NCBI GenBank assembly: GCA_019116705.1
Contig: DXBF01000054.1
Span: 93,304 to 157,303, forward strand
DNA: 64,000 bases
Reading direction: 5' to 3'
Source: Candidatus Gemmiger avistercoris
GTDB lineage: Bacteria; Bacillota; Clostridia; Oscillospirales; Ruminococcaceae
The notes below the pieces were generated by a model. It was not told where the DNA came from. It searched no databases and worked only from the letters and a program-made list of their open reading frames with translations. How positions within the stretch are numbered: position 1 is the first letter of the stretch; every line of letters starts with the position of its first letter. The position numbers and the translations under genes were made by a program. Of this stretch, positions 6,181 to 12,223 are shown one piece after another.

Positions 6181-7577
6181 GGCGTCACCTCCTTCAATGT
6201 GATCCATACCGTTGTGCCCTGCCCCGCTGCGCTTTCGATCTGCAGCCGGGCGCCGTGGGCCTGCGCGATCTGCGCGCAGATGGTAAGCCCCAGCCCGTTG
6301 CCGCCGCTCATGCGGGAACGGCTTTTGTCCACCCGGTAGAAGGGTTCCGTCAGTTTTTCCAGTTCCTCCGGCGGGATGCCCGTGCCGGCGTCGGTAACGC
6401 CGACGCGCACTCCGTCCGCTGTTTCCTTGTTCCAGAACAGGATCGTCCCGCCCGATTCGTCGGCATGGGCCGCGTTGAGGATCAGGTTGCGCAGCAGAGC
6501 CGTCAACAGAGGGCGGTCGGCGCGCACCGCCGCATCTTTTCCCTCCCACCGCAGCCGTGGCTCCAGTTCCGGCAAGCTGCGGCGCACATCGCCCCAGACT
6601 GCGCTCAGTTTCACATCCTGCAGGGCCACGCCCCCCTGCTCCAGCCCGAACAGGAGCAGCAGTTCCCGGCTCAATTCCTCCAGACGCTGCGATTCATGGT
6701 AGATGTACCCGGCCGCGCGGTGGCGCTTATCCGGGGCCTGTTCCCCGCTGCGCAGCAGATTGGCATAGCCCAGAATGGCCGTCATCGGCGTTTTCAGTTC
6801 ATGGCTGAAAGCCGCCACGAACCGTTTCTGCCGGGCGCTCTCCTCCCGCAAAGCCTGCACCTGGTTTTCCACAGCTTCCGCCATGGTATTGAACGTGTTG
6901 CCCAGGTGTTCCAGTTCGTCCCGGCTTCGGATCTGTACCCGTGCCGTAAGGTCCCCGCGGGACAGCGTCCGGCTCGCTGTTTCCAGCTGGCGCAGCGGCT
7001 GGGTCAGCAGCCGCGCCACGATCAGGGCCGCCGCGCCCACCAGCAGCAGTACGCCGCCCACGCGGAACAGGTCTTGCCGGATCAGACGGTCGCGTTCTGC
7101 AAACTGGTTCCCGGCGTCATAGGCGTTGACCAGCCAAAGCGGACGCTCCGCACCTCACATCCGGGTGCAGAGGATCTGGTACGAATCCGCCCCGTCGGCG
7201 TGATACAACACCTGGTGCTCCCCGGCGGCGGCCGCCTCCTGCTGTTTGGCATAGGGGATGGCAAATGGCATCGTGGAATACAGTACCGTCCCCTGTTCCC
7301 CCAGTACCGAGAACCAGGTCCGGCCCTTGCCCAAGGCCTGTTCCTGCGCCTCATACTGCTGCATCAGCGAAAGGAACGTTCCGATGCTGTCGTCTTCCGA
7401 GCCCGCCAGCAGGGCTTCCAGCGTATAACGCTGCTGCATCTGCGCTTCACTGTGGGTCTGCGCCGCCACCTCCAGTTCCCGGACGAAACTTCGGTGGACT
7501 GACCAGGTCCCGCTCACCGAAAGCACCAGGCAGACCGGCAGCACGATCGCCAGCGCTACTTTCTGGGAAAATTTCAT
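6177..7577 (-). pseudogene. Sensor histidine kinase (TM-sensor-TM-HAMP-HisKA-HATPase) interrupted by one in-frame TGA at 7155-7157
   Basis: ORFs 7155-7577 and 6177-7061 share a frame; reading through TGA gives ...CTRM*GAERPLWLVNAYD... into TM2; H-box SHELKTP, N-box NLILNA, G-boxes intact. Confidence 0.85.
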
Positions 7578-8233
7578 GGTTCCTCCTCCAGCAGATAGCC
7601 GATTTTGGGCACCGCCCGCAGCTGGCTGCCCCACCCCAGCTTTTTGCGCAGGCGGCTGATGTGGATATCCAGTGTGCGGGGCATCACATCACAGTCCAAT
7701 CCCCACACACGTTCCAGCAGTACGTCGCGGTACAGCGCGATGCCCCGGTTGTAGACCAGCACCATCAGCAGGTCGTACTCCTTGGGTTTCAGGCGGATCT
7801 CGGCCCCGTCCCGGGTGACGGTGCGGCTCTCGGGCTGGATCTCGATACCCCAGACCCGGATCGTCTGCCTGCGCCGCCCGGTGTGGCGCATCAGGCCGTC
7901 CACCCTTGCCAGCAGTTCCTCCGCCGCAAAAGGCTTGACGATGTAATCATACGCCCCGGCGCGCAGGCCGCGCACCCGGTCTTCCACCGACGCTCGGGCC
8001 GTGAGGAAGATCACCGGCGTTCCCGTAGGTGTGATGTAATCCATCAGAGCAAACCCGTCCACGCCGGGCAGCATCACATCCAGCAGAATCAGATCGAACG
8101 CGCGCTTTTCGATCAGGTCGGCGGCTTCCTCGCCGCTGCCCACCTTGCTGCATACATAGCCGAAGGGTTCCAGCGTCATTTCGATGAGGTCCGCGATAGC
8201 TTTTTCATCCTCCACGATCAGTACCTGGTTCAT
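7574..8233 (-). CDS. OmpR/PhoB family response regulator
   Basis: LIVEDE, LLDVMLPG, DYIVKPF, winged helix RTLDIHISRLRKKL, VPKIGY. Confidence 0.95.
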   Translation of the reverse strand: MNQVLIVEDEKAIADLIEMTLEPFGYVCSKVGSGEEAADLIEKRAFDLILLDVMLPGVDGFALMDYITPTGTPVIFLTARASVEDRVRGLRAGAYDYIVKPFAAEELLARVDGLMRHTGRRRQTIRVWGIEIQPESRTVTRDGAEIRLKPKEYDLLMVLVYNRGIALYRDVLLERVWGLDCDVMPRTLDIHISRLRKKLGWGSQLRAVPKIGYLLEEEP

Positions 8234-8369
8234 GGCGTCCTCCTCCCTGTTCTCTGCCTTTTATTATAGCGTACAGCGTTTCCAAAACATTGCCAACCCC
8301 AAAATATATTGAGGGCTGTTTTCTCCTCGCGGAAAAACCGCCGCCCGCAGAGTCCGGCACAATATCCCC

Positions 8370-8629
8370 CAGGTGATGATAAGCACCGCCTGGTCGATAC
8401 CTTCATCCATGCCGTCTATCTGACCGACGATTCCGCTTTTGTGCAATTTAACATATCCTACCCCGTAAACGACAAAAGCACCACGCTCGAAAGCGTGGTG
8501 CTCGATCTGCTGCATGGTAACCCCGATGAAAATATAGACGTTCCAACGTCTAAAATCATGGGGTTCGACCATGTTGCACTTGGTGGAGCTGACGGGAGTC
8601 GAACCCGTGTCCGAAAAGAAATCGGTTAG
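8370..8629 (+). pseudogene. Remnant resembling the C-terminus of a large serine recombinase at the tmRNA 3' end
   Basis: HRLVDTFIHAVYLTDD..VQFN resembles LSR C-terminal motifs; frame runs antisense into ssrA ending GGADGSRTRVRKEIG*; no catalytic domain or RBS; left boundary approximate. Confidence 0.55.
8467..8502 (-). terminator. Probable ssrA terminator inside the recombinase remnant
   Basis: Perfect 11-bp stem AGCACCACGCT/AGCGTGGTGCT, UUCG loop on minus strand, then TTTGTCGTTT. Confidence 0.7.
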
Positions 8630-8933
8630 AGTATCTCCGGGCGCAGTGTATTTATTGGGATTCCCTCGGCGCGGGCGAATACACACGCACTACGCTTTGG
8701 TAGCTTCATAAATGCATGACGGGCCGCAAAGCTTAAGCCCGTGCACGTTCAGTACCTAATCGACGCCCTGAGCCCGCGCGGTACTGACGCGGGCAGGACG
8801 GTCGCGCCTAATCAGGCAGCGACGGCAACAGGATAATTGTTGTCAGTTCATTTTAGTTGGCGCTTTTATCGTGGTGCACCGCCACGGCCCGCTGCTCACG
8901 CCTTTCTCTCCCCGTCGAAACCATTACAGCCCC
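8581..8933 (-). ncRNA. ssrA: tmRNA; predicted tag (A)DNNYPVAVAA at 8844-8812
   Basis: 5' GGGGCTGTAATGGTTTCGAC, 3' GGTTCGACTCCCGTCAGCTCCACCA; 353 nt; tag ends in AA-stop; directly downstream of smpB. Confidence 0.96.
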
Positions 8934-8981
8934 GCATATTCGGTGGGCCATGCCCACCGGGAAAGCAAAAGCAGACAGCTT

Positions 8982-9449
8982 TTATCGCTGCGTTTTCAAT
9001 GCGCGGTCGATGTCGCGCTTGGCGTCGCGCGCCGCAGCGGTCGCGCGTTTGTCGTACAGTTTTTTGCCTTTACAGAGCCCCAGTTCCAGCTTGACGCGGC
9101 CATGTTTGAAATAGAGCGAAAGCGGGATCAGCGTATACCCCTGCAGCTTGATCTGCTGGCCCAGGCGGCGGATCTCGGCCTTGTGCGCCAGCAGGCGGCG
9201 AGGGCGGCGGGGGTCCTTATTGAAGATGTTCCCCTGCTCGTACGGGCTGATGTGCATGCCCTTCACGATCAGTTCACCGTCGTCGATATCCGCCCAGGCG
9301 TCCTTGAGGTTGGCCCCGCCGGCACGCAGGCTTTTGACTTCGGTGCCCACCAGTTCGATGCCGGTCTCCAGCGCCTCCATCACAAAGTACTCATGGCGTG
9401 CTTCGCGGTTTTGGGCAATGATCTTTTTTCCAGACTTTTCCTCTGCCAC
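8982..9449 (-). CDS. smpB: SsrA-binding protein
   Basis: [29 protein letters not shown]; GTG start after AGGAGG. Confidence 0.97.
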
Positions 9450-9481
9450 AAGCACACCTCCTTTTCATGCAGTGGGGTTAG

Positions 9482-9510
9482 ATTATAGCGCAGGCGCGCC
9501 AAAAAGTCAA
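9482..9510 (-). promoter_or_regulatory. Sigma-A promoter of smpB-ssrA
   Basis: TTGACT-17-TATAAT. Confidence 0.75.
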
Positions 9511-9520
9511 GACCGGTTTG

Positions 9521-10117
9521 TCACAATTCGCCGCGGCCCTGCATGGCGCGGTACAGCGTCGTCTCGTCGGCGTATTCCAGGCTGGACCCTACCGGCAGGC
9601 CGTAGGCCAGCCGCGTGGTACGCACGCCCAACGGTTTGATCAGCTTGGCCAGGTACATGGCCGTGGCCTCCCCCTCCACCGTCGGGCTCGTCGCCATGAT
9701 GACTTCCTTGACGGTATCGTTGAGGCGGGCCAGCAGTTCCTTGACGCAGAGCTGCTCGGCGCCCACGCCGTCCATCGGGGAGATCAGGCCGTGCAGTACA
9801 TGGTACAGCCCGTTGTATTCGTGGGTGCGCTCAATGGCCTTGATATCCCGCGGGCTTTCCACCACGCAGATGGTGCTGCGGTCCCGTTTGGGCGAAGCAC
9901 AGATCCTGCACACTTCGTCCGCCGTATAGTCCTGGCAGATGCGGCAGCGGTGCAGGTCCTTTTTGGCGTGCTCGATGGCTTTTGCCAGTTCCATCGCCTG
10001 TGCGTCCGGCATCGCCATGACTTCATAGGCCATCCGCGTGGCGCCCTTGCGGCCGATGCCCGGGAACCGTGCAAACTGGTCCACCAGATTTTCCAGCGGC
10101 TCTACATTCTGCGGCAT
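9521..10117 (-). CDS. recR: Recombination mediator RecR
   Basis: PGIGRK HhH, C4 zinc finger, YHVLHG, TVEGEATA TOPRIM. Confidence 0.97.
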   Translation of the reverse strand: MPQNVEPLENLVDQFARFPGIGRKGATRMAYEVMAMPDAQAMELAKAIEHAKKDLHRCRICQDYTADEVCRICASPKRDRSTICVVESPRDIKAIERTHEYNGLYHVLHGLISPMDGVGAEQLCVKELLARLNDTVKEVIMATSPTVEGEATAMYLAKLIKPLGVRTTRLAYGLPVGSSLEYADETTLYRAMQGRGEL

Positions 10118-10128
10118 GGCGACCCCTC

Positions 10129-10470
10129 TCAGCCCAGACCGGGAATGTTCAGCCCGCCGGTCATCTTGGCCATTTCTTCCTCGGACTCCTTGTCCACCGC
10201 AGCGACCGCGCTGTTCACCGCCGCCGCGATCAGATCCTCCAGCATTTCCAGATCGTCGGGGTCAACCGCTTCCGGCTTGATTTTGACTGCGGTGACCTCG
10301 TGCTTGCCGGTCATCGTGACAGTGACCATCTCGCCGCTGGCCGTGCCGGTGTATTCCTTGGCTTCGAGTTCCTCCTGCTTGGCGCGGATCTCCTCCTGCA
10401 TTTTCTGGACCTGGCGCATCATGGCATTGGGGTCCGGGCGGCCGTAGCCTTTGGGCAGTCTTGCTTTCAT
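10129..10470 (-). CDS. ybaB: YbaB/EbfC nucleoid-associated protein
   Basis: VDPDDLEMLEDLIAAAVN; dnaX-ybaB-recR order. Confidence 0.95.
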   Translation of the reverse strand: MKARLPKGYGRPDPNAMMRQVQKMQEEIRAKQEELEAKEYTGTASGEMVTVTMTGKHEVTAVKIKPEAVDPDDLEMLEDLIAAAVNSAVAAVDKESEEEMAKMTGGLNIPGLG

Positions 10471-10489
10471 AAATGTGTTCCTCCAACTT

Positions 10490-12223
10490 TTATTGATCTT
10501 CGATCGCCACATCTACCCCCAGCGCCTGCATGTTCTGCAGGGTCTGGTCGATGGTCGGCTGTTTCGTTCCCCGGGCTTCCGCCTCCTGGGGCTTATAGGG
10601 GCCGATACCGCAACGGATGCGGGTAGTGCGGTAGATGGCTTCCTTCATTTTTTTGCGGATATCCTCATTGTTGCGGATGTAGTCGCGGAAGGCGTCGCTG
10701 CACTCAAACAGCACCCGCCTCCCGTCATAGTAGGCATGGGTCCCCCGCAAAAAGGAGATCAGCATCGCGTCCGTTTCCTCCAGGTCCGCCAATACCAGCG
10801 CCCACTGGGGGAAGGGTCTCAGTTCCCCGGCTTCCTCCTTGGGCGCCGCCTTGCGCGGCGGCGCGGCGGGTTGGGGAGCCGGGGCCGCCTGCGGCGCCGG
10901 CCTGAGTTCCGGCTGCAAAAATTCCGGCTCTTCGTCCGGCGGCGGAACTTCCTCCGCCAGCGGCCGCGCCTCTTGCACGGGCGGCGCTTCCTGCGGGATC
11001 GCAGACGGCACGGGTCGCGCCGCGGTCGGGGGCGGCGCCGTGCGCGCCTGCACCGGCGGAGGGGAAGCTGCCGGCGCCGCCGCAAAAGGCTGCGGCGCCG
11101 CCGGCCGGGCCTGCTGCGGCTGGGCGGCCGCAGCGGGAGCCGCTGCCTGTGGCTGCGTCAGCGCAAAAACCGCCAGTTCCAACTCAATGCGCTGATCGGT
11201 GCCGCGGCCCATTTTTTCCAGCGCCTGTCCGAAAGCATTGATGGCACGGATCGCCTCCGCCTGTGGGAATTCCTTGCGCGCCTGATAGGCCGCCTCCTCC
11301 TCCGGCGAGGTGCCGGTCAGCAGGTCGGCGCCCCCCGGCAGGCCACAGAGCATCAGGTTACGGTAGTGTCCGGCCAGTTCCATGCAGAGGCGGCGCATAT
11401 CCACACTCTGCTGGCGCAGTTCGGCGATCTTTTCCAGCGCCGTGACGGAGTCCCGTGCGGCAATGGCGTCGCTGATCTCAAAAAGATAGGTGCGGTCGGT
11501 CACACCCGCCATGCGCCGCACCAGCGCTTCGTCCACGTGGTTGTCCACACCGGCGCAGGTATCCAGAATGGAGAGTGCGTCGCGCATGGCGCCGTCTGCC
11601 AGACGGCCGATCAGCCGGGCCGCATCCGATTCCAGTTCGATCTTTTCCTGCCCGGCTACGAACAGCAGCCGGTCGGCAATGTCCCGGGCCGTGATCCGCG
11701 CAAAGTCGTACCGCTGGCATCGGCTGAGGATGGTGACGGGAACTTTCTGGACTTCGGTGGTGGCCAGGATGAAGATCACATGCTCCGGCGGTTCTTCCAT
11801 CGTCTTGAGCAGGGCATTGAACGCCTGCATCGAGAGCATGTGCACCTCGTCGATGATGTATACCTTGTAGCGGCAGACCGACGGCAGATAGGCGACTTCA
11901 TCCCGCAGGTCGCGGATGTCGTCCACGCCGTTGTTGGAAGCCGCGTCCATCTCGATGATGTCCATGATCGCGCCGCTGTCGATCCCCTTGCAGATCTCGC
12001 ATTCGCAGCAGGGATCGGGGCTGGTATGATCCAGGCAGTTCACCGCCTTGGCAAAGATCTTGGCACAGGTGGTCTTGCCGGTGCCGCGGGTGCCGGTGAA
12101 CAGATAGGCATGGCCGATGCGCCCGGCGGCGATCTGGTTCTGCAGCGCTGTGACGATGGGTTTCTGCCCCACTACGTCGGCAAAACGCTGCGGACGCCAT
12201 TTACGGTACAACGCGCGGTACAT
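10490..12223 (-). CDS. dnaX: DNA polymerase III subunit gamma/tau
   Basis: YRKWRP, GTRGTGKTT, DEVHML, SRC; Pro/Ala linker; GGAGG RBS before ATG at 12223. Confidence 0.97.
   Translation of the reverse strand: MYRALYRKWRPQRFADVVGQKPIVTALQNQIAAGRIGHAYLFTGTRGTGKTTCAKIFAKAVNCLDHTSPDPCCECEICKGIDSGAIMDIIEMDAASNNGVDDIRDLRDEVAYLPSVCRYKVYIIDEVHMLSMQAFNALLKTMEEPPEHVIFILATTEVQKVPVTILSRCQRYDFARITARDIADRLLFVAGQEKIELESDAARLIGRLADGAMRDALSILDTCAGVDNHVDEALVRRMAGVTDRTYLFEISDAIAARDSVTALEKIAELRQQSVDMRRLCMELAGHYRNLMLCGLPGGADLLTGTSPEEEAAYQARKEFPQAEAIRAINAFGQALEKMGRGTDQRIELELAVFALTQPQAAAPAAAAQPQQARPAAPQPFAAAPAASPPPVQARTAPPPTAARPVPSAIPQEAPPVQEARPLAEEVPPPDEEPEFLQPELRPAPQAAPAPQPAAPPRKAAPKEEAGELRPFPQWALVLADLEETDAMLISFLRGTHAYYDGRRVLFECSDAFRDYIRNNEDIRKKMKEAIYRTTRIRCGIGPYKPQEAEARGTKQPTIDQTLQNMQALGVDVAIEDQ

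Follow-up and report, generated by a model that had tools for sequence, protein, structure and literature searches.

A serine integrase stump at the 3′ end of ssrA in Candidatus Gemmiger avistercoris, probably the relic of a lost temperate element

Why does an open reading frame on one strand of this genome end inside the tmRNA gene on the other? The frame lies in the window, by which we mean the whole 64,000-nucleotide stretch of contig DXBF01000054.1 that was analyzed, and a preliminary description had taken it for the remnant of a serine recombinase gene with its own attachment site inside it. We hold with considerable confidence that this stump is the relic of a lost temperate element whose attP lay within its integrase gene, and that it is now the probable terminator of ssrA. 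On this account, the odd ORF overlapping ssrA finds its explanation as the fossil of a lost prophage.

A reading frame that ends inside the tmRNA gene

The tmRNA gene is intact and has an encoded CCA end (8581–8933, minus strand). It was located by ARAGORN and by Rfam RF00023, whose match (152.8 bits) spans the full model, positions 1–374, with CCA at the end. On the plus strand, a frame stays open from 8270 to a TAG at 8627–8629, a length of 119 codons, and its translation, ...HRLVDTFIHAVYLTDDSAFVQFNISY...GFDHVALGGADGSRTRVRKEIG followed by the stop, matches the earlier quotation. ARAGORN, Rfam, and our reading of the ORF agree that the frame crosses the ssrA 3′ end and stops inside the tmRNA gene, as had been described; the overlap is 49 nt, that is, 16 codons plus the stop, antisense to the acceptor and T arm. 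This terminal part, ADGSRTRVRKEIG with its stop (8581–8629, plus strand), forms the B′ side of a hybrid attachment site.

Host genes flank this arrangement on both sides. Directly upstream of ssrA lies a probable smpB (8982–9455, minus strand; from the ORF list, named from its translation and its position adjoining ssrA) in a stretch that BLAST finds conserved in congeners. On the downstream side, ssrA is followed on its own strand by a response-regulator gene (7574–8233, minus strand; Pfam Response_reg and Trans_reg_C), which lies 140 bp left of the stump. The spacer between this gene and the stump (8234–8372) is unrelated to the integrase by BLAST and DNA alignment. Its part at 8234–8297 is conserved with the congener G027 and represents the region upstream of the response-regulator gene (BLAST), and its part at 8298–8372 contains the left deletion breakpoint.

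A minor point concerns the tmRNA itself. The tag peptide that ARAGORN calls for it, ATVLPASVPRGLRASIRY (8581–8933, minus strand; tag region about 8815–8850), looks mis-called. Read on the minus strand from the Rfam-aligned resume region, the tag runs ...D N N Y P V A V A A and a stop, which gives the canonical Ala-Ala end and may be compared with the DNTDTVAVAA called for the congener locus L195.

The frame belongs to a large serine recombinase (LSR) family. A search of a protein library of 5.8 billion, limited to longer proteins, returned nine matches (P0001–P0009) with E values from 3.4e-35 to 4e-14 and identities of 57–94%, covering 67–82% of the 106-aa query, a resemblance well beyond chance. 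Eight of the nine (P0001, P0002, and P0004–P0009) are full-length proteins of 534–566 aa with Resolvase (PF00239), Recombinase (PF07508), and Zn_ribbon_recom (PF13408) domains; P0003 gave no Pfam hit. The translation from the window aligns to the C-terminal 70–85 residues of the full-length proteins, starting at a point that corresponds to residue ~455 of 555. The suspicion that the frame encodes the C terminus of an LSR was therefore correct, and the start proposed for the remnant, 8370, was essentially exact, since full-length integrase genes match the DNA from about 8373 onward.

What remains of the integrase gene is ~69 codons of its 3′ end (8373–8580, plus strand, delimited by protein and DNA alignments). 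This 208-bp stump proper encodes the last β-hairpin of the zinc-ribbon domain and then the linker, up to the att core, and has no start codon; the whole leftover, counted to the stop of the frame, is 257 bases. The TTG at 8309 only looks like a start and is fortuitous. Pfam and PHROG searches of the 106-aa ORF gave no match, and the catalytic domain with its serine nucleophile (PF00239), PF07508, and PF13408 are all absent from the feature. With only ~69 codons left and no catalytic domain, it is a fragment from an LSR gene rather than an LSR, a dead remnant. Elsewhere in its own genome, which is 83% complete, we found neither another copy of the stump nor a match to P0001 at E ≤ 1e-60; given that completeness, an intact copy of the element might still lie in the missing part. 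A genus-wide search with P0001 brought up only integrases about 40% identical, and none of the stump's lineage among the species representatives.

Among the homologues, P0003 (242 aa) joins ~50 N-terminal residues to the last ~190 and keeps the antisense-tmRNA tail. This integrase has suffered an internal deletion and shows that metagenomes contain further decay intermediates of the element.

The attachment site and the exchange of integrase tails

A repeat search, together with the point at which the protein tails diverge, places a hybrid attachment site of the attR type at 8561–8606. The site consists of two 9-nt arms, GGGTTCGAC and GTCGAACCC, which form a perfect inverted repeat around a 28-nt spacer; its dyad center is the GT at 8583/8584, where the CCA meets the discriminator base. 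Its left arm encodes the conserved G-F-D of the integrase, and its right arm is the T arm of the tmRNA. In a protein alignment, the homologues share ...GFDHVALGG and part right after the GGT GGA codons (8582–8587). The antisense-tmRNA tail present in the window recurs in P0001, P0003, and P0004, representing the integrated state, and P0006 and P0007 show a longer read-through. P0002, P0005, and P0009 carry an alternative tail of 32–35 aa with the pattern P[VS]A..[DE]EPF...ILLCI.

The other junction, attL, and the body of the element are missing, and the feature is no longer mobile. No second copy of the tmRNA end exists within the 64-kb window. Searching the collected loci and the window by tblastn with the attP-state tails of P0002, P0005, P0008, and P0009 gave only chance-level matches, and no attL, attP, or empty site of the exact lineage was recovered among the loci examined; where the crossover fell and how far the deletion reached are thus inferred. 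We also considered 8298–8372 as a leftover of the attP right arm and rejected it: the similarity of 8337–8365 to the sequence right of the core in locus L005 was equaled by 49 of 500 shuffles and is not significant.

Relatives with better preserved elements reveal how the tail changes. In a sister lineage, the integrases of the Faecalibacterium phages Lelie (PP479942; free) and FP_Toutatis (MG711466; prophage) are 97% identical up to ...GMRLV. From there, the Lelie protein continues for 31 further residues, and the Toutatis protein ends in RVARIELTAS and a stop, read from antisense tRNA-Pro; the divergence falls at the CCA end of tRNA-Pro, 3 nt beyond TGGT. At all 24 non-redundant loci compared in the wider clade, the integrase ORF passes through the att core and terminates within genes for tRNA-Pro(GGG), Gln(CTG), Ser, Ala, or Leu or inside the tmRNA gene. 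A second sublineage (L100–L107) reads the tmRNA antisense in another frame. The claim that the integrase tail differs by state thus holds at the protein level (P0002, P0005, and P0009 versus P0001 and P0004) and at the DNA level (Lelie versus Toutatis); it does so on relatives, the window's own element being gone. Likewise, the homologue geometry, the divergence of the tails, and congeners that have no stump bear out the proposal of a relic of an ssrA-targeting element with attP inside its integrase gene.

Relatives 33–68% identical to P0002 end antisense in genes for tRNA-Gln(CTG), Pro(GGG), Ala(CGC), Leu(TAA), and several tRNA-Ser (loci L110, L113, L119, L126, L130, L133, and L137; L112–L170; L097; L033; and L040–L062). 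To judge from these gene ends, target switching within one LSR clade appears frequent. One of these loci, L097, has an integrase 3′ end of the window's type but adjoins tRNA-Ala. In the attP of Lelie (L202, 3930–4010), a CGAAC-like motif of the right arm lies ~5 bp further from the GT center than does TCGAAC on the tRNA-Pro arm (L203). This single observation is reminiscent of the way in which the attP and attB half-sites of LSRs are offset by 5 bp. Pfam and PHROG searches of the ORFs upstream of the L195 and L025 integrases gave an XRE-type HTH protein, a C5 methylase, and one PHROG of unknown function; this being little, the assignment to a prophage type depends on IMG/VR calls and on the relationship to Toutatis and Lelie.

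Could the exchange of tails be a regulatory switch at the family level, with the tail of the circular form giving a fully active or stable protein and the prophage form an attenuated one? The passage of the ORF through the att core at every locus just counted would suit such a switch, as would the EPF and ILLCI motifs that the attP-state tails of P0002, P0005, and P0009 share; a precedent was proposed for DsiB (PMC3146451) and another reported for Mx8 IntP, the latter as cited in PMC4383910. However, the free-state tails of the P0002, Lelie, and L101 types share no motif across sublineages whose bodies are ~55% identical, and an AlphaFold model of P0002, with a mean pLDDT of 60 overall, falls below 40 at residues 499–555, which, from an alignment of 8 sequences, is a weak hint that the tail is unstructured. 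Moreover, the protein before the core varies while the RNA hairpins are kept, which points to a constraint at the DNA or RNA level rather than at the protein level. We regard a switch of this kind as rather unlikely.

The architecture can be set against several known systems. The integrases of phiC31, Bxb1, and A118/LI resemble the full-length homologues in having Resolvase, Recombinase, and zinc-ribbon domains and short, dyad-symmetric att sites. Their attP sites lie outside the integrase ORF, and their targets are protein-coding genes or intergenic sites. The closest named relatives are those of Toutatis and Lelie, LSRs 53% identical to P0002, which share with the stump's family an attP inside the integrase 3′ end, a prophage form that ends antisense in a tRNA gene, and, as read from the sequence, a hairpin plus T-run antisense to the integrase 3′ end; they differ from the window in targeting tRNA-Pro(GGG) rather than tmRNA and in being complete phages. 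In the publications on these two phages, either no att sites were found for the LSR prophages (PMC5883640) or the integration sites were called intergenic (PMC11792537).

The preliminary remark that tyrosine integrases are the classical users of tmRNA sites stands only in part, as it overlooks a published serine precedent: DsiB, a ~540 aa serine recombinase of the Dehalococcoides ssrA islands (McMurdie et al. 2011; PMC3146451). The dsiB gene always overlaps att at its 3′ end, with its stop in ssrA or in the neighboring island, and its authors proposed that the full protein is possibly encoded, and fully functional, only on the circle (PMC3146451). DsiB thereby resembles the stump's family, a serine recombinase at ssrA whose gene overlaps att. 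The differences lie in the site, since the islands insert in the T-loop with a 20-bp direct repeat whereas the window has a center between CCA and discriminator and no visible repeat, and in the setting: the islands form tandem arrays in Chloroflexi and are low in GC, mobilizable, and equipped with a DsiA partner, whereas the window holds only a stump whose relatives are prophages of gut Clostridia.

Among tyrosine recombinases, the Myxococcus phage Mx8 integrase IntP has attP in its ORF, so that integration alters the C terminus, according to the passage of PMC4383910 that cites Tojo et al. 1996, and the integrase gene of the fusellovirus SSV extends across attP and is split on integration (PMC4383910). 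In that source, both share with the stump's family an attP inside the integrase ORF and have a tRNA gene as target, but their fold and mechanism are unrelated. According to the Islander paper of 2014, no serine integrase was known to use a tRNA gene as its target (PMC4383910). The design is thus already known from DsiB (2011) and Mx8 IntP, and the window is a further case. What we add is modest: we describe a cassette of antisense terminators, and we place the serine integrases of Toutatis-like gut phages among those that target tRNA or tmRNA genes, through which phages of gut Clostridia, including Toutatis and Lelie, join the few documented integrases of this kind with attP in the ORF. The att geometry (9-nt dyad, 28-nt spacer, CCA/discriminator center) could help callers of prophage borders and prospecting for integrases.

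Terminator-like hairpins on the tmRNA strand

A scan for terminator patterns gave 4 sites versus 1.1 expected. Two of them lie downstream of the tmRNA on its own strand, and both are inside the stump; from ssrA to the response-regulator gene, terminator-like sites occur nowhere else. Hairpin 1 (8535–8552, minus strand; pattern scan and MFE fold) is followed by TATTTTC and is the inner part of a longer conserved stem at ~8513–8573, in which RNAalifold finds compensatory changes. Hairpin 2 (8476–8503, minus strand; pattern scan, MFE fold, and RNAalifold) has a 12-bp stem followed by TTTGTCGTTT. The strand opposite hairpin 2 encodes the family-invariant KSTTLESVV, and in L027 the stem is kept with different bases.

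When the 125 nt downstream of the RNA gene were folded for 8 family members, a two-hairpin structure common to all emerged. In these 8 sequences, which are related to each other, RNAalifold predicts 35 pairs, 18 of them with compensatory double changes; the many G-U pairs and the U-tracts are compatible with the tmRNA strand only. Of the 24 non-redundant loci, 15 have a terminator-like hairpin no more than 130 nt from the end of the RNA gene, compared with 7 of 96 control windows placed farther from that end within the integrase gene. Over hairpin 1, the protein varies freely between lineages while the pairing is kept, which suggests a constraint on the RNA rather than on the protein there. 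In one conspecific contig, hairpin 1 is weakened by a substitution.

Pattern and covariation together indicate that the stump probably serves as the ssrA transcription terminator now, although its persistence could simply be neutral. Antisense terminators of this type may be how such elements keep their target RNA gene properly terminated after integration. A broader reading, which we put forward tentatively and would give somewhat less than an even chance, is that the integrase 3′ end is dual-coded, specifying the linker and tail on one strand and tandem terminators plus an att arm that mirrors the T arm on the other; that the fragment was domesticated as the ssrA terminator; and that Toutatis-like phages belong to a large tRNA/tmRNA-targeting clade that is undescribed, in the sense that we found no description of it in the literature on these phages and integrases. 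If the dual-coding reading is true, a coding fragment would have been domesticated as a non-coding signal.

Origin and retention of the stump

Four metagenome contigs ~99% identical to the window carry the stump, which is thus fixed in Candidatus Gemmiger avistercoris. It is 97–98% identical among these conspecific contigs, and the flanking genes are ~99% identical; a divergence of 2–3% versus ~1% fits non-coding decay.

Outside the species, congeners fall on either side of the insertion. Nine of them have no stump, and BLAST shows unrelated sequence directly downstream of their tmRNA end, so the stretch is not ancestral; the presence of this sequence past ssrA in relatives with no island history, which would have spoken against a relic, was thus not seen in these nine. 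In the congener G027, the response-regulator/kinase operon adjoins ssrA across a spacer of only about 110 bp, which has its own hairpin and T-run terminator, absent from the window. By contrast with the stump-free congeners, L195 (82% identical in DNA to 8381–12000 of the window) has at the identical position a full-length integrase, 83% identical to P0002, that ends inside tmRNA, and L025 (Gemmiger sp. An87) and L027 also have full-length integrases adjoining ssrA. Full-length homologues abutting ssrA, which the preliminary description had suggested looking for, therefore exist at all three loci, with the stop inside ssrA in each.

We weighed two other origins for the stretch. The 106-codon ORF (8309–8629) might be a functional small gene, a domesticated C-terminal fragment of the recombinase that is expressed as a protein, and it is true that the frame is open for 119 codons and kept in the 4 conspecific contigs. 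However, the ~21 codons that follow the TTG match nothing, the domain searches were empty and all three domains are missing, the stump diverges more between strains than the flanking genes do, 4 of the 6 differences between the window and L198 within the stump change an amino acid, and the end of the protein would be arbitrary antisense tmRNA. We consider such a gene very improbable and recommend that the feature be annotated as a pseudogene fragment and ssrA terminator, not as a gene. Nor do we find it at all credible that the stump is the native host terminator region of ssrA, captured by phages into their integrase genes. Several congeners do have terminator hairpins containing GTTCG just past ssrA, and in one of them, G004 (L023), the resemblance to the window continues 24 nt past the end of the tmRNA gene, but the homology extends over 208 bp and keeps the reading frame of the final zinc-ribbon-domain strands in full-length integrases, L097 has this integrase 3′ part beside tRNA-Ala, and the 9 congeners described above have no stump.

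The homology, the geometry of the junction, the loss of the remaining element, and the conserved hairpins are direct observations; from them, for the relic of a temperate element, we infer the following order of events. An ancestor of the species would have carried a temperate element, most likely a Toutatis-like prophage, acquired when an attP in the last codons of the integrase gene recombined with an attB centered on the CCA/discriminator end of ssrA. Integration would have set the integrase gene head-on to ssrA, with its last 13 residues and stop supplied by antisense tmRNA, and would have pushed the gene's own terminator away to the element's far end. A replacement would come from the phage family, in the two intrinsic terminators built into the 3′ end of the integrase gene. 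A later deletion would then have taken nearly the whole element, attL, and the displaced native terminator, leaving the 208-bp stump and the hybrid att site, immobile. The stump was probably kept since its two terminators separate ssrA from the downstream response-regulator/kinase operon.

Two further observations concern other congeners. In L009, L011, L016, L021, and L023, the hairpins of the native ssrA terminator, in the first ~45 nt past the tmRNA, contain GTTCG/CGAAC at a distance from the tmRNA end equal to that of the phage att arm; these motifs are either the natural left arm of attB or older scars. In L005 (G036:C118, 1500–1700), a second, shorter stump of ~125 nt has both hairpins and the TGGTGGA core but does not lie beside tmRNA. 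A different full-length LSR gene occupies the opposite strand there, with its stop 26 nt beyond the core, an arrangement that may represent a nested or tandem integration.
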